NCBI GenBank assembly: GCA_035298745.1
Contig: DATGXS010000046.1
Location: 4,317-68,316, forward strand
Reading direction: 5' to 3'
Source: Lentimicrobium sp.
GTDB lineage: Bacteria > Bacteroidota > Bacteroidia > Bacteroidales > Lentimicrobiaceae
DNA: 64,000 nt
In this document: piece by piece, positions 14,497 to 23,022 of the stretch
Layout of the letters: each line of letters opens with the position of its first letter
Position numbering within the stretch: the first letter of the stretch is position 1
Notes under the pieces: model-generated
What the model saw: only the letters and a program-made list of their open reading frames with translations
What the model was told of the DNA's origin: nothing
Databases searched by the model: none
Made by a program: the position numbers and the translations under genes

Positions 14497-17466
14497 TTAT
14501 TTGTATATAACCCCAACATTCTTTTTACCGTCAATCTCTATTCTGATTGGTTTTGTAAAACGAACATGGCGTATAAATTCATCTTCATACACAGCATCCT
14601 GTGACCTGAGGTATTCAAGGTCATAATACCCTTGCTTGATATGTGGGTTCAATGTAAAATAGCCTACATGAAATGAGGTCAGGTTTTGAAAGAAATGTGT
14701 TCCCTGGCTTGGATCGATACGGTAATTTTCGAGTCCTGATTCAATGATTACTCTTGCAGCTGAAATTTGTGGCCACCTTACAGGTATTCCAAGCCAGGGA
14801 TCAGAAGAACCCCACCGACCCGGGCCCACAAGTATGTAATTACATTTTGAAGCAAGAAAACGATCATTCAAAATTTCAAGTGAATCAGCAATCTCCAGGC
14901 TCTTTGCGGCCTTCCATGATTCAGGTTTTATGTACACAAAATCACAAACATTGTTGATGATTCCATTGCCGAGTGCCATATCAGATATGATGATGGTATC
15001 TTCTTTAGCAATTTCTTCGATCTTTATATTAACAGTCTCATTTTTCCCAACGATAGGCCTGATTTGCAGTAGAGAGAATAATTTCTGATGACCTTTAGGG
15101 ACGTCCAAATCAACAGCAAATTCTATTTCAACAGGCTTACCCATCTCCCTTTGGCCAATCTCAAGCACAGTACTTAAAATTTCAGCTAAGGGAAAAGAAT
15201 TATGGTTCAGCACCTGTGAAAAAGTTAATACTCTTCGTCCTGGATAAAGAGTTCCATCAATCAGTGTGCTACTATTCAGATCAAAAGTTGAGGCAACCAG
15301 TTTAAGCGTTCCATCGTTTTCGGCACTGGCTACATTATTGCGAAGCAGATTAACAGTGTCATCAATATCAGGATGGAAATGATCGGGATTGAGGTCGAGT
15401 GAGTAGAAATTCTTTTGTGTCTCTGCCATAGCCAATTCAGGGTTGGAGAGTTGCAGGACTTTCTTAGGATATTTAGGAGAAAATCTTAAACCATTACCAC
15501 CATCAACAATATATTTGCCAAGCCCAAATGCAATATTTGCTATGCCATCCTCCGGCTTTTCAGGTGCAATCGGATAGAAATTAATTGACCTTGCGACACC
15601 TGAGATACAGGGATAAAACCTGTTACCATATTGCCGGCCCGTTATCTCCTGAAGTACCACTCCCATCTTTTCTTCATCAATCACATTCAGGGTTGCTGAC
15701 ATGTATGATTTGCTGTCCTTAAAAAATACAGATGCATAAACACTCTTTATAGCCTCTGAAAGTTTCTCCATCATGAGCCTTTCGTTCGCTTTAATATTTG
15801 GTATCATGTAAGTGGAATAGATACCTGCAAAGGGCTGATAGTGTGAATCTTCAAGTAAGCTGGATGACCTGATTGCTATTGGGTTATTAACGCAAGTGAT
15901 AAAAGTGTATAAATCTTCATGAATTCTGAAAGGAAGCCTTGCATGAATAAAATGAGCCAGTATATCTTTGTCAGTCCGGTCAGAAAGCGCAATCTGATGA
16001 AGATTGTTGGTTTCCATAAACTCATCGAACACATCGGTACCAAGAACTACCGTCCGTGGTATGGAAATAGCAACATCTTCAAACCTTTCATATAACCGGT
16101 TTCGCTTTATCAGTGAATCAAGAAATGACAATCCACGTGCTTTCCCTCCGATAGAGCCCTGGCCGATACGTGCAAAAGATAAGTATTCATCATACCTTTC
16201 ACGGTCAAATTCAGCGATTACTCCCTTAGCCTTATTGATTCTGAATGCCGTAATTGAGTCAAATATATACCGTTTAGCTTCATCCATATCCTGGAATTCA
16301 GTTACCGATACTTCCCTGAACATCTCTGCAATAGGAAATAATGCACGGGCATTCAACCATTTTGAGAAATGATTGCGCTGCATGTGGTACATCATTGAAT
16401 CATCAGGCACTTCAAATATCTTTTCCTGAAGCGACTTAAGATCGGTTGCCCTGGTAATTTCACGCCCGGTCCTTGGATTAACAAATACAAAATCTCCAAA
16501 AGAGAAATATTCATTAATAAAGTTGCGAAGCTCAATTGAAAGTGTTTTTGACAATTTATTAAGAAAACCAACATTAAGCTCTTCAGCTAATACCTGGTTT
16601 GATGAGTCAGACGACTGCAACAGTATTGGCATAAATTCGTCTTTTGCCCTTACCATCTTAACAAATTCAATTCCTGCGGCTTTATCAGTTACACCATTGC
16701 GTTTGTAGCTCACATCAGATATTATGCCCAGCAGGTTATGCCTGTATTTTTCAAAATAACGTTCTGCTTCCTCGTAATTTGTAGCAAGAACAATCTTAGG
16801 CCTACCCCTCATCCTGATCATCTTCTGATGTTCATTCAGTCCCTCAGCAATAAAGCTTTTTGATTGCCTATAGATAATTTTATAAATATTTGGGAGGTAG
16901 CTGGAGTAAAACCTTACACTATCTTCTATTAGCATTATAGCCTGAACACCCTGCCGTATGTCAGATTCAATGTTCATTTTATCCTCAATAAGTTTGATGA
17001 TGGCTAATAGAATATCTGCATTGCCTAACCAACTAAAGACATAGTCAATTGCAGCAAGGTTTTTTTCTTTCAGTCTCATACTAACTTCACGAGAAAAAGG
17101 AGTCAGAACCACAAATGGTATTTTTGGATACCTCGCTTTAACGCGTGCAGCAAGCTCAAAACTATCGGAACTCTCTATATTAAGCATTGAAATAACCAGC
17201 TCAATATTCTTGTCATTAAGCACCTCATATGCTTCTTCCTCTGATGTAACTTTTATAAACTGAGGAGGATAACGCAAACTGAGAGAAACATACTCCATGA
17301 AGATAGTCTCATCTATCCTTCCGTCTTCTTCAAGCATAAATGCATCATAGGTACTGGAAATAAGCAGTACCTGATAGATCCTTCGCTTCATTAAAAGATT
17401 GAATGAAGTGTCAATAAAGTAGTACTTTTTGGGGTCTAGCGCATTTTGCTTTTGCATAAAATTCAT
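14497..17466 (-). CDS. PEP-synthase-like ATP-grasp protein with N-terminal pseudo-receiver, receiver and DUF5752-like domains
   Basis: GGKARG, AIRSSSLLED, FAG, VVLQE, FGLG, VEIEFA and LQIRP are PPDK_N/PpsA motifs. Receiver motifs LIED, ISD251, QSS, LNK. No pyruvate-binding barrel. Confidence 0.85.
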   Translation of the reverse strand: MNFMQKQNALDPKKYYFIDTSFNLLMKRRIYQVLLISSTYDAFMLEEDGRIDETIFMEYVSLSLRYPPQFIKVTSEEEAYEVLNDKNIELVISMLNIESSDSFELAARVKARYPKIPFVVLTPFSREVSMRLKEKNLAAIDYVFSWLGNADILLAIIKLIEDKMNIESDIRQGVQAIMLIEDSVRFYSSYLPNIYKIIYRQSKSFIAEGLNEHQKMIRMRGRPKIVLATNYEEAERYFEKYRHNLLGIISDVSYKRNGVTDKAAGIEFVKMVRAKDEFMPILLQSSDSSNQVLAEELNVGFLNKLSKTLSIELRNFINEYFSFGDFVFVNPRTGREITRATDLKSLQEKIFEVPDDSMMYHMQRNHFSKWLNARALFPIAEMFREVSVTEFQDMDEAKRYIFDSITAFRINKAKGVIAEFDRERYDEYLSFARIGQGSIGGKARGLSFLDSLIKRNRLYERFEDVAISIPRTVVLGTDVFDEFMETNNLHQIALSDRTDKDILAHFIHARLPFRIHEDLYTFITCVNNPIAIRSSSLLEDSHYQPFAGIYSTYMIPNIKANERLMMEKLSEAIKSVYASVFFKDSKSYMSATLNVIDEEKMGVVLQEITGRQYGNRFYPCISGVARSINFYPIAPEKPEDGIANIAFGLGKYIVDGGNGLRFSPKYPKKVLQLSNPELAMAETQKNFYSLDLNPDHFHPDIDDTVNLLRNNVASAENDGTLKLVASTFDLNSSTLIDGTLYPGRRVLTFSQVLNHNSFPLAEILSTVLEIGQREMGKPVEIEFAVDLDVPKGHQKLFSLLQIRPIVGKNETVNIKIEEIAKEDTIIISDMALGNGIINNVCDFVYIKPESWKAAKSLEIADSLEILNDRFLASKCNYILVGPGRWGSSDPWLGIPVRWPQISAARVIIESGLENYRIDPSQGTHFFQNLTSFHVGYFTLNPHIKQGYYDLEYLRSQDAVYEDEFIRHVRFTKPIRIEIDGKKNVGVIYK

Positions 17467-17533: not shown

Positions 17534-20500
17534 CTACCGATCAGGGTTCAGGGCAGTTAGATCAGCTTTAGCTGCTTTATCTTTAATCACCTCATTATTT
17601 ATAGTAATCACAGCAATACGCTTTTTACCATCCATTTTTACTGTAAGTGGTTTAGGGAACCGAGCAATTGTGAAATAATCGTTCTTTGCTAATTCTGCAT
17701 GCTTTTTAATCATGTCATATCTTATAAAGCTACCCGACATTTCAGGTTGAATGCTAAAGTACCCAACATTCATGGAAGTAACGTTGTGGAAAAAGTGAGA
17801 ACCTGATGAGGCATCTAAAGGGAACCCCTCAAGGCTTGTTTCAACAATGATATTTGCATTTGAAATTTGCGGCCATGTAACAGGTATACCAATCCATTTA
17901 TCCCGCGTACCCCATCTGCCGGGACCAATAAGTATATATTTCTTGTTTTCCTGAATCATACGAGCATTGATTTTATCAATTTCCCTCGCCATTTCTTCAG
18001 TTTTACCTTTATCAAATGTATCGGGATCAACAAATATTATATATTCAATATCGTCAATAAGTCCATTGCCCATTTCCTTTTCTGAATATAATACAATGTC
18101 ATCATCTTTAATAGTACTCATCTCAATCTGGTAATCGTTGGCATTACCAATTAGTGGCTTTATCTGCAATATATAGAAAGTGGCTTTATTGTCCTGATCC
18201 TTATTTAGATCTACTGCAAACTCAATTTCTACCGGTGAGCCTAGTGCTTCTTTTACAACATCAAGTACTACTTCAATAGTCTTAGCGAGGGGTATATAGT
18301 TATACTTCAAAATATCAGCAAAATTAACCACACGTGGCCCCTGTTGGTTTAGTCCCGGACTAATTCTATTATTTTCCAATGAATAAACTGAAGCAAGATG
18401 TTTTAGAGTTCCATGCACTTCTGCATCATAGATATCCAGTTTACGAAGGCCGGCTTCTTCACCCTCAAGCAAATTGACTTCTTGCTTCTTGAGATCAACA
18501 GCATAGAACTTAACCTGAGAACCTTTGTACTGGTCTTTTGGCGAATTAATCTCAAGATTTGGATATAAAGGAGAGAACCGGTATGCCTTTTCACCCTCCA
18601 CAACATAACGACCCAAACCAAGAGCACAAACAGCAAATCCTTCTTCAGGCTTCATATGCCCAAAAGGATAGTAATTATAGGATTGTGCCACCCCACTGAT
18701 ATGAGGATAGTAAACATCGCCATACTGGTTGCCAACAACTTCCTGTATAACCACTGCCATTTTTTCCTGCTCAATCTTATAATTTATGGCCTTTATATAT
18801 CCGCGGGCGGTATCAGAATAGACTGATGCATACACAAGTTTAATGGCATCCATAAGCTGTTGAAGCCGAACCTCCTCGTCAGGATGGCTATTGGGAATCA
18901 GATACGTTTCAAATATTCCCGCAAAGGGCTGATTTAAAGAATCTTCAAAAAGGCCTGATGAACGTATCGCCAATGGCCTTGGAATGCTCTTAATGATTGT
19001 TCTTAACCTTTTAATAAGGGTACCGGTAAGTTTAGCTTCCAGAAACTTACTTTTAATTTCATCATAATTATTTTCACCTAAGATTACATCACGCAAATTG
19101 TTTCTGTCAATGAAGTATTCAAACTCATCAGTACCAATAATAGATGTTTTGGGGGCTCTCAGATTTATATTCGGCACATGCCTTGAGAAATCATAATTAT
19201 AAATCAGCGTATTAATAAAGGCCAGTCCTCTGCCCTTTCCTCCCAATGCACCTTCAGTAAGTGAAATAATATTCTTTTCATCAGTAATAGCTGATTCTTC
19301 AAAAGGAATTACTTTACCTATATTTTGTTCATTCCTGAAATGCTGTATCACACTTATCAGGTACTCGCGCAAACTCTCAGGATCTTTAAAGTCACTAACC
19401 TTAGCAGGATTAAGGATTTTTGCCACCTGAATTTCGCCGCGTGCCATTAACCACATTGAAAAGTGATTCTTTTTTGCATGGTACAGAAGTGATTCAATTG
19501 GTATTCTTGACAGGAAATCCTGAAATTCCTTGAGTGACCGGGCAACTGCAATTTGTTGTCCGTCCTTATTCCTATATATAAAGTTGCCGAAGCCCAGGTA
19601 ATGGGTTATAAAACTTCTGAAATCCTGTAGAAGAGTTTCGGAGTTCTTATTTATAAAAGATGTTTGAAGCTCATAGGCCTTATTTACATTCTCAGCATCT
19701 GATGACTGGATCATAATTGGCAGTTCCTTGATCTCCTTGCGCATTTGTTGTACCAACTTTATACCTGCCGATTCATGCAGCCTACCATCTTTTTTGAATT
19801 TAACATCAGTGATTAAGCATAATATATAGTCCTTATATTTATTGAAGACATACATTGCTTCTTCGTATGTTGATGCTAACATTATCTTTGGTCGTGCCTT
19901 CAATCGAAGTATCCGGTACAATTCGTCGGTGGTCACATCCTCTATGATATGCTTTGTCTGCTCCAGTACAATATTATATAACATAGGCAGATAGAGGGAA
20001 TAATACTTTGGCGAATCTTCCACTACAAGTATAACCCTGGTAATACCTATTTTTGTGTCATTCTCAACATTAATCTTATCCTCCAGGTAATTGATCATTG
20101 CAAAAAATATCTTTGAATCACCATTCCAGACAAATATTTTGTCAATCCAGGTCAGTTTTTCAGGTGTCTTGTCAAACACTGCAATGTCAGTATTGCTATT
20201 TAAAAGAAGGAATACGGGGATATAAGAATAATGCTCTTTTATTTTCCTGCTGATTTCAACCGGGAACTGTTTATCAACACCCATCATGATTATGACCAAA
20301 TCATAATGCTTTTTACCGAGTTGTTCATAAATCTCTTCTTCTGAAGATACACCGGTAATTCTTGGCATAGTGCTAAGGCTAAGTTGATAAAACTCACCGA
20401 GCACATGCTCTGAGAAGCGTCCCTCCTTCTCAATACTGTAAGCATCATAGAGATTGGCAACCAGCAAAATTTCTTTGACCTTGAAAGGCATCAGGTCATG

Positions 20501-21448
20501 GTAGATGTCACGATTGTAATTGCTTCTGTTTAAGAAGGTTTGTAAAAGCTGCCGGCTATACTTTACATTTTCAGGATGGCTTGGCCGCTGAACTGTTTCA
20601 GCAGGAGCGCCCATTTTAATAATAGCCTTACCTTTAATACTATTCAGGAATCCGGTAATAAGATTTGCTATATTAATAATAAGGTGTCGTTCTTCTTCAA
20701 GAAAGGGCCCTTCATAAGATGCAGGGAAAGCTTTAAGGTAATAGATTTCAATGCTTCCTGACTGATTATCTATGGTTTCAAATGATTGTTTTTGTACCCA
20801 CTGAGTTTCCCTGAAATCAGCACTGCTTGTCTCAATGTCTGCATATCTGATCCTGCATACGGCAAATTCAGGATACTGCCATGCTTTAGGCATAATGAGG
20901 CATATCTGATGAATTGCTTCTTCTATGGGTTTTCCGGAACGAAGAATGGCTGTGGTTTGATTGATAGCCGACAATTCTTTCAGCCTTTCCCTGTTTACAA
21001 AGCTACCTTCCTTACCCTTAATACCATTTAAATAACCTTCTATGAGGCTAGCCAGGTTAAGAATTAGATTTCTCTCTTCAAACATAAATGGCCCCTCATC
21101 CATTTTAGGGAATTCACGGAGGTAACAAACCGTGATAAGGCCTTGCATATTATCTATTGTCTGAAATTTCTGTTCCTGCTTCCATTCTGTTTCAACAAAT
21201 CCTCTTGTTGCAAATTCCATATCGTCAAATACGATCCTTGCAACTGTGGCTTCTGGATATTGCCATGCGGAAGGAATTATTGAACAAATCTCTGCCAGGG
21301 TATCCTGAATAGGACCTGCTTTCTTAATAATAGATGTGGTATCATTAATAGCCTGAAGTTCTTTTACCCTTTCTTTACTAAGGTGAAGCAGTTTATCAAC
21401 ATCTATTTTGTTGGTCGAATTATTTGCTTTATCGTCGGCTTGGAGCAT
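17534..21448 (-). CDS. Paralogous PEP-synthase-like ATP-grasp/receiver protein with two N-terminal GAF-like repeats
   Basis: Same motif set as the neighbour (GGKGRG, AIRSSGLFED, FAG, VVIQE, LGLG, VEIEFA, LQIKP). Two ~115-aa repeats KEL.AIN...P.AWQYPE...EGPF..EER.LI. Start set at MLQADDK; the track ORF starts at 21571. Confidence 0.85.
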   Translation of the reverse strand: MLQADDKANNSTNKIDVDKLLHLSKERVKELQAINDTTSIIKKAGPIQDTLAEICSIIPSAWQYPEATVARIVFDDMEFATRGFVETEWKQEQKFQTIDNMQGLITVCYLREFPKMDEGPFMFEERNLILNLASLIEGYLNGIKGKEGSFVNRERLKELSAINQTTAILRSGKPIEEAIHQICLIMPKAWQYPEFAVCRIRYADIETSSADFRETQWVQKQSFETIDNQSGSIEIYYLKAFPASYEGPFLEEERHLIINIANLITGFLNSIKGKAIIKMGAPAETVQRPSHPENVKYSRQLLQTFLNRSNYNRDIYHDLMPFKVKEILLVANLYDAYSIEKEGRFSEHVLGEFYQLSLSTMPRITGVSSEEEIYEQLGKKHYDLVIIMMGVDKQFPVEISRKIKEHYSYIPVFLLLNSNTDIAVFDKTPEKLTWIDKIFVWNGDSKIFFAMINYLEDKINVENDTKIGITRVILVVEDSPKYYSLYLPMLYNIVLEQTKHIIEDVTTDELYRILRLKARPKIMLASTYEEAMYVFNKYKDYILCLITDVKFKKDGRLHESAGIKLVQQMRKEIKELPIMIQSSDAENVNKAYELQTSFINKNSETLLQDFRSFITHYLGFGNFIYRNKDGQQIAVARSLKEFQDFLSRIPIESLLYHAKKNHFSMWLMARGEIQVAKILNPAKVSDFKDPESLREYLISVIQHFRNEQNIGKVIPFEESAITDEKNIISLTEGALGGKGRGLAFINTLIYNYDFSRHVPNINLRAPKTSIIGTDEFEYFIDRNNLRDVILGENNYDEIKSKFLEAKLTGTLIKRLRTIIKSIPRPLAIRSSGLFEDSLNQPFAGIFETYLIPNSHPDEEVRLQQLMDAIKLVYASVYSDTARGYIKAINYKIEQEKMAVVIQEVVGNQYGDVYYPHISGVAQSYNYYPFGHMKPEEGFAVCALGLGRYVVEGEKAYRFSPLYPNLEINSPKDQYKGSQVKFYAVDLKKQEVNLLEGEEAGLRKLDIYDAEVHGTLKHLASVYSLENNRISPGLNQQGPRVVNFADILKYNYIPLAKTIEVVLDVVKEALGSPVEIEFAVDLNKDQDNKATFYILQIKPLIGNANDYQIEMSTIKDDDIVLYSEKEMGNGLIDDIEYIIFVDPDTFDKGKTEEMAREIDKINARMIQENKKYILIGPGRWGTRDKWIGIPVTWPQISNANIIVETSLEGFPLDASSGSHFFHNVTSMNVGYFSIQPEMSGSFIRYDMIKKHAELAKNDYFTIARFPKPLTVKMDGKKRIAVITINNEVIKDKAAKADLTALNPDR

Positions 21449-21621
21449 AAAAAATAGTTTAGTGGTAACAAACACCGGAATCGCTAAAGTTACATATTCT
21501 TTTTTTCTTGCCAAACAATGATAAGTTAGCTTTTTTGTTTGGAAATTTATTTTAGAAAGATGTGATACCATTCATTTTTTTTATCTAATTTTCGCGATCT
21601 TTTTAATTTGTTACCAACTAA

Positions 21622-23022
<1,401 letters not shown>

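Follow-up and report, generated by a model that had tools for sequence, protein, structure and literature searches.

This analysis concerns two adjacent genes of a Lentimicrobium sp. and, above all, the C-terminal domain that their products share. Both genes lie on the minus strand of a 64,000-nucleotide stretch of DNA (assembly GCA_035298745.1, contig DATGXS010000046.1, positions 4,317 to 68,316), which we call the window. The gene for the longer protein, p2, is directly upstream of that for p1 (Table 1); counted from the start given in the database, p2 has a length of 1304 amino acids (aa). The two proteins are 37% identical across 966 aa, the whole C-terminal region included. In both, Pfam detects an ATP-grasp domain of the PPDK_N family (PF01326; E 1.2e-39 in p1, and E 7.8e-39 at residues 775–1143 of p2), as well as receiver matches (PF00072) and a sub-threshold DUF5752 stretch in the linker. 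No Pfam family covers the last ∼170 residues of either protein, and the NCBIfam matches are confined to the grasp and receiver parts. These last residues form the domain of interest, hereafter the C-domain.

Table 1. Features of p1 and p2, in window coordinates
Feature	Position	Strand	Remarks
p1 open reading frame	14497..17466	(-)	989 aa; pseudo-receiver, receiver, linker, PPDK_N ATP-grasp and C-terminal domain
p2 open reading frame	17534..21571	(-)	1345 aa; p1-like architecture plus N-terminal extension of ∼340 aa
p1 ATP-grasp (PPDK_N), residues 438–822	15001..16155	(-)	Pfam; takes in the variable ∼17-aa tether, residues 806–822 (15001–15051)
GGKARG motif, p1 grasp domain	16132–16149	(-)	motif location in sequence
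IRSSS motif, p1 grasp domain	15859–15873	(-)	motif location in sequence
EIEF motif, p1 grasp domain	15118–15129	(-)	motif location in sequence
LQIRP motif, p1 grasp domain	15055–15069	(-)	motif location in sequence
p1 C-terminal domain, residues 823–989	14500..15000	(-)	unannotated α/β domain; AlphaFold2 (AF2) model, no Pfam family
G833-N834-G835 loop	14962..14970	(-)	strands 1 and 2 on either side; invariant in 242 homologues
G881-P-G-R-W-G886 glycine-rich loop	14809..14826	(-)	after strand 3, then D889; invariant
E909	14740..14742	(-)	end of strand 4; invariant in alignments A1 and A2
D918-P-S-Q-G-T-H924-F-F-Q-N928 signature	14683..14715	(-)	contains His924
p2 C-terminal domain, residues 1158–1322	17606..18100	(-)	A1 profile score 247 bits

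The first-pass annotation of this sequence had proposed that the C-domain is a cryptic phosphohistidine swivel domain of the kind found in PpsA, PPDK and PTS enzyme I (EI), and that both proteins keep the phosphocarrier His and are catalytically competent. The observations from which it started are borne out. All the strings that it quoted are present, ALGNG, YILVGPGRWG, ARVIIE and DPSQGTHFFQN in p1, and MGNG, YILIGPGRWG, NIIVE and DASSGSHFFHN in p2, and the His within the last string of each set is His924 in p1 (codon CAT, 14695–14697) and His1259 in p2 (codon 17795–17797).

Conservation of this His holds at every depth of sampling. Among 242 close homologues, made up of the best 120 matches of each paralogue and both queries, the invariant positions are G833-N-G835, G881-P-G-R-W-G886, D889, E909, D918, S920, G922, H924, F925, F926 and N928. 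His924 is again invariant in an alignment of 44 C-domains with 34–54% identity to p1 (A1), as is G833 (column G28), while G835 (G30) is nearly so. When the ATP-grasp and C-domain are aligned together as one module (A2, 66 sequences), the sole His in the invariant or nearly invariant columns is H505, which corresponds to His924. The family as a whole is large: when 1.84 billion representatives, with clusters drawn at 50% identity, were scanned word-free with HMMER, at least 1683 representative clusters came up at E ≤ 0.001. In the best 150 of these 1683 clusters, whose mutual identity is at most 50%, the His is kept in all 153 of the 153 C-domain instances, divergent second copies included. The conservation of the C-domain is far beyond chance, and the observation of a conserved His is confirmed.

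The grasp domain in front of it carries the expected residues. In A2, K23, R114, E361, E363 and Q382, which belong to the motifs GGK, RSS, EIEF and LQxRP, are invariant or nearly invariant; the mapping was made at the level of motifs, as HHalign of A2 against the single sequence of the genome's own PPDK failed even on the grasp domain. A two-domain model of p1 residues 420–989 was obtained with a predicted local distance difference test score (pLDDT) of 88.9 and a predicted TM-score (pTM) of 0.80. Its best structural match in Foldseek is RPH (5hv1; E 1e-13, 439 columns), and it also matches the isolated RPH ATP-grasp (5hv6; 385–391 columns), the ATP-grasp of HpeI (PDB 9GOJ; E 5.8e-11) and PpsA (2ols; E 2e-9, 401 columns). 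Overall, the matches of the grasp domain to RPH, PpsA and PPDK span E 1e-13 to 6e-4. p1 and p2 are thus members of the dikinase superfamily with a PPDK_N-type ATP-grasp (PF01326). Other members bind their acceptor in a domain of its own, be it a PEP/pyruvate barrel, a RIF-binding or a glucan-binding domain. In p1 and p2 neither PF02896 nor any other domain of this sort was detected by Pfam or NCBIfam, which give only the receivers and the weak DUF5752-like linker in addition to the grasp and C-domain.

Both the architectures and the distribution of the family indicate that the two domains go together. Six architectures were checked, and in each of them the C-domain comes after PPDK_N; they include the receiver–receiver–grasp–C arrangement seen in the window, minimal grasp–C proteins of ∼580 aa, and two-module proteins of 1500–1650 aa, such as P0308 (1654 aa) and P0249 (1639 aa). 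Stand-alone C-domain proteins were considered and rejected, 67 of 84 short representatives being collinear fragments of the long architecture; since most short matches are such fragments, a free-standing C-domain is without support. The C-domain always stands behind PPDK_N and the short matches are mostly fragments, and therefore the unit is ‘ATP-grasp + C-domain’. In the genome collection at least 600 stretches match, and the family is widespread in Bacteroidota, its cultured carriers including Bacteroides intestinalis, B. timonensis, Parabacteroides, Gillisia limnaea and Lutibacter. No characterised member was found in literature searches on the ATP-grasp + C-domain family. The two-module relatives P0249, P0265 and P0308 have a divergent second C-domain in which GPGRWG and S-F-G-T-H-F-F-Q are retained; P0308 also has, at its C-terminus, a nucleotidyltransferase domain of the Pol-β type (PF01909, E 1e-7).

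The proposed identity of the C-domain fared less well than the conserved His. The PEP-utilizers (phosphoenolpyruvate-utilizers) swivel family, PF00391, gave no match to either C-terminus in hmmscan at E ≤ 10 (the family cut-off is 23.1 bits), nor to any of 44 diverse members of A1, for which Pfam at E ≤ 10 returned nothing consistent. A six-frame search of the whole genome located PF00391 at two sites only, on contigs C29 and C50. One of these is a 915-aa PPDK that reads GGMTSHAAVV. The second (C50:19449–19694, (-)) is within an open frame of 1367 aa, far above the length of PPDK or PpsA, which may be another non-standard dikinase. Because both genomic PF00391 domains are on other contigs, no swivel partner lies beside p1 and p2. 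Conversely, the C-domain profile, searched against the genome at E ≤ 10, found p1 and p2 only, and no swivel domain.

Searches of the PDB sequences gave the same picture. With phmmer, full-length p1 returned receiver-domain matches or noise only, and the C-terminal 188 aa retrieved no PPDK, EI, PpsA or RPH. None of these four appeared in hmmsearch with A1 either, where the matches were noise and longin domains came out best, at E 0.23. Profile–profile comparison was made with HHalign between the C-domain, as A1 or as an alignment of 128 sequences, and 27 His domains of PPDK, EI and PpsA. The three types were used one by one as well as together, and the settings covered two match-state choices, the larger of the two query alignments, and global and greedy modes. 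The probabilities were 0.1–1.2%, against 98.5% for the positive control PPDK–EI, 97.2% for PPDK–PpsA and 97.1% for EI–PpsA. In the best greedy alignment GPGRWG falls on G.PG..G and VIIE on ILV..E, the two His residues are unaligned, and the register is unlike that of the first-pass annotation. The likeness in motif order to PpsA, PPDK and EI that had been claimed is, at an HHalign probability of at most 1.2%, not above chance. The canonical swivel signature around the catalytic His is G-G-x-[TS]-[SC]-H-[AST]-A-[IV], which is not matched by the signature of the C-domain family, D-x-S-x-G-[TS]-H-F-F-x-N. Since S-x-G-[TS]-H-F-F-x-N differs from G-G-x-[TS]-[SC]-H-A-A, ‘G-[TS]-H’ stands in a different register in the two. 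In addition, the invariant GNG, GPGRWG, E909 and D918 of the C-domain are absent from PF00391.

The predicted fold leans in the same direction. An AF2 model of the C-domain, built from the 44-sequence alignment, has pLDDT 93.1 and pTM 0.90. In the numbering of this model, which starts at residue 806, so that His119 is His924, strands are predicted at 19–23, 30–41, 72–77, 99–105, 130–135, 153–156, 160–174 and 179–183, and helices at 48–67, 93–96, 118–126 and 145–150. The first strand begins at residue 824, and the folded domain coincides with the span given in Table 1. The invariant motifs sit, in the model, on loops after β-strands, and His119 is placed in the first turn of helix 118–126, an invariant His at a helix N-terminus as in the swivel family. 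When the model was compared by Foldseek with 350,542 PDB chains, nothing was found at E < 0.001 and the best TM-score was 0.30; a search of BFVD found nothing. The 50 matches listed are mixed α/β proteins (GH18, peroxiredoxin/GPX, arginase, USP and SMPDL3A), with neither PPDK, EI, PpsA or RPH nor a swivel of the aconitase type among them. The size is also different: at ∼167–183 aa, with ∼10 strands and 4–5 helices in the model, the C-domain is about 1.6 times as large as a swivel domain, which in RPH is a three-layer β/β/α sandwich of ∼100 aa (residues 767–865; PMC4844700), and in GWD has ∼120 aa with 3 helices and 7 strands (PMC13553574).

Two other identities were tried and rejected. A metallophosphoesterase or arginase-like domain is not indicated, as the Foldseek matches to SMPDL3A, MRE11 and arginase are insignificant (TM ∼0.2) and there is a single invariant His. 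GPGRWG might suggest a dinucleotide-binding site of the Rossmann type, but this was set aside, as the modelled loop does not lead into a helix.

Thus, with no PF00391 match, HHalign at noise level and no significant Foldseek neighbour, the C-domain is not recognisable by sequence, profile or detectable fold as a member of the PEP-utilizers swivel family, and the first-pass identification as a cryptic swivel domain is not sustained. Within the reach of Foldseek, HHalign and the profile tools, the predicted fold appears to be a different one. What the results do show is a compact, family-specific α/β domain, directly fused behind a PpsA/RPH-type ATP-grasp in all full-length homologues examined.

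The reading of the His that we favour, tentatively, is that the C-domain is an α/β partner domain whose His would be a functional analogue of the swivel His rather than a recognisable homologue. The C-domain occupies the slot of the PpsA/PPDK swivel, directly behind the grasp and after a tether of ∼17–20 aa of variable sequence, and it has a single invariant His, preceded by G-T or G-S. The motifs of the grasp domain are conserved, and the surroundings of p1 and p2 encode no PF00391 domain that might supply a swivel. The enzymes PEPS, PPDK and RPH act via a phospho-His (PMC4844700), and so does GWD (PMC13553574), while VadK, a truncated PPDK, autophosphorylates on His422 without a pyruvate domain or acceptor barrel (PMC13400623). 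Set in the first turn of a helix and beside a glycine-rich loop, the invariant His would be in a typical arrangement for holding phosphate. The ATP-grasp would then have the C-domain as its partner in catalysis: ATP in the grasp domain would most likely give a phosphoryl group to His924 (in p2, to His1259), the phosphate would be held by the glycine-rich loop together with the N-terminal end of the helix, and the intact second receiver may turn the reaction on or off. The phosphoryl group might finally go to a small molecule, to a partner protein or to the receiver Asp of the protein itself. From the alignments and models, a putative phosphocarrier His in a competent enzyme, as had been proposed, is plausible for both p1 and p2.

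Several points weigh against this reading. With its pTM of 0.80, the two-domain model suggests that the C-domain is held in place at a fixed interface and is not free to swing. R884, D889, E909, D918, S920 and N928, all invariant, would be just as well suited to a pocket for ligand binding or catalysis, where the His would serve as a general acid/base instead of a carrier. From the other side, nine PPDK chains align to the two-domain model over 610–702 columns at ∼10% identity, running through the C-domain, and this is a weak pointer to a very remote relation with the swivel.

The pocket residues lead to the most serious of the rival explanations, in which the C-domain would be a substrate-binding or second catalytic domain, in the role of the rifampin (RIF)-binding domain or of the PEP/pyruvate barrel, and the ATP-grasp would phosphorylate or adenylate a ligand directly, with His924 as acid/base or ligand contact. 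We consider this somewhat doubtful, but it has to be taken seriously because of the polar residues, which together with the glycine-rich loop resemble a pocket, because of the pTM, and because the minimal homologues of ∼580 aa have no other domain able to bind an acceptor. Against it, no characterised PPDK_N-type ATP-grasp with direct, carrier-free transfer was found in the superfamily papers examined (PMC4844700, PMC13400623, PMC13553574). Moreover, the His varies no more than the glycines do, and phospho-acceptor sites typically lie where it is modelled, in the first turn of a helix.

Unlikely, in our view, is a true but extremely diverged swivel homologue, with insertions and a C-terminal extension, in which His924 would be equivalent to His455 of PPDK and His825 of RPH. 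The position of the C-domain behind the tether would agree with this, as would the modelled order β-α-β-(α)-β-loop-α-β, with the His in the first turn of the helix after the loop, followed by C-terminal strands. The canonical order of swivel elements is compatible with this modelled order, but a β-α-β order is generic. The long PPDK alignments would also agree, since ∼385–440 columns suffice for the ATP-grasp alone; they are nevertheless weak, because a small positive score is enough to lengthen an alignment in this way, TMq is 0.17–0.35, and the C-domain on its own retrieves no PPDK. The remaining evidence, from PF00391 and the PDB profile search to HHalign, Foldseek and the size of the domain, all stands against homology.

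Less probable again is that the C-domain is a new phosphohistidine-carrier fold, independent or diverged, which would phosphorylate itself with the ATP-grasp and pass the phosphoryl group from the His to the Asp of its own intact receiver or to a metabolic enzyme, for example a putative glutamate dehydrogenase encoded nearby. Finally, a non-catalytic role for the C-domain, in regulation or oligomerisation and with a structural His, would agree with the lack of a match to any known catalytic fold, but is very improbable, as invariance of His, Gly, Asp, Glu, Ser and Asn across clusters of <50% identity is atypical of a structural domain.

The arrangement of p1 and p2 can be compared with that of three known enzymes. 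RPH-Lm (5FBS/5HV1; PMC4844700) likewise has a His-bearing C-terminal domain and no PEP/pyruvate barrel, but a RIF-binding domain of ∼430 aa lies between its grasp and a canonical PF00391 swivel, whereas in p1 and p2 a C-domain not recognisably related to the swivel follows the grasp directly and receivers stand in front. VadK (Rv1127c; PMC13400623) also combines an ATP-grasp with a His domain in the absence of an acceptor barrel. Its swivel is canonical and phosphorylation of His422 has been shown, in contrast to the non-canonical C-domain described here, which is known from sequence and model. A regulatory role with links to central metabolism, and not a bulk metabolic one, has been proposed for VadK (PMC13400623); for the C-domain, 29 of 79 related loci have a gdh-like gene no more than 6 kb away. 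In the two-component kinase HpeHI a grasp module is likewise reported to be combined with partner modules in a new way (PMC12167813); there the kinase is split over two proteins, whereas no such second protein is encoded near p1 and p2.

The remainder of the two proteins and their surroundings can be described briefly. The first receiver-like unit of p1 (residues ∼25–310; 16540–17400, (-)) is without the acidic pocket and phospho-Asp (LLISS / VISML), while in the second receiver the acidic pocket and phospho-Asp are kept (IEDS, IISDVSY, QSS, NK). The N-terminal extension of p2 (residues ∼60–330; 20560–21400, (-)) contains two tandem repeats of ∼130 aa each, with the pattern LKEL[QS]AIN..T..I...G.PI...L..IC.I.P.AWQYPE....RI......, and has no Pfam match; these repeats may be a duplicated sensor module that p1 is without. 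A gene of 460 aa (21640..23022, (+)) is divergent from p2. The tandem paralogue pair is present in 18 of the 79 related loci. The gdh-like neighbourhood of the C-domain loci carries no information on the His.

The description that suits the C-domain best is a His-bearing domain that partners a dikinase-type ATP-grasp and is conserved but unannotated. Enzymes with a PPDK_N-type ATP-grasp are thought to rely on a swivelling phosphohistidine domain, and here is a family in which the grasp domain is intact and the swivel domain is missing. If the His of the C-domain is the missing carrier, the dikinase mechanism would have been kept on a new scaffold; otherwise, the grasp domain would have been turned to a different chemistry. 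To know the role of the His would also offer a first handle on a receiver-controlled enzyme that is frequently found beside glutamate dehydrogenase genes, and the C-domain itself, with a confident AF2 fold and neither a PDB neighbour nor a Pfam model, is a candidate for the definition of a new family. Should it prove to be a new phosphohistidine carrier, it would represent a second, non-HisKA route to histidine-based signalling, widespread in Bacteroidota.

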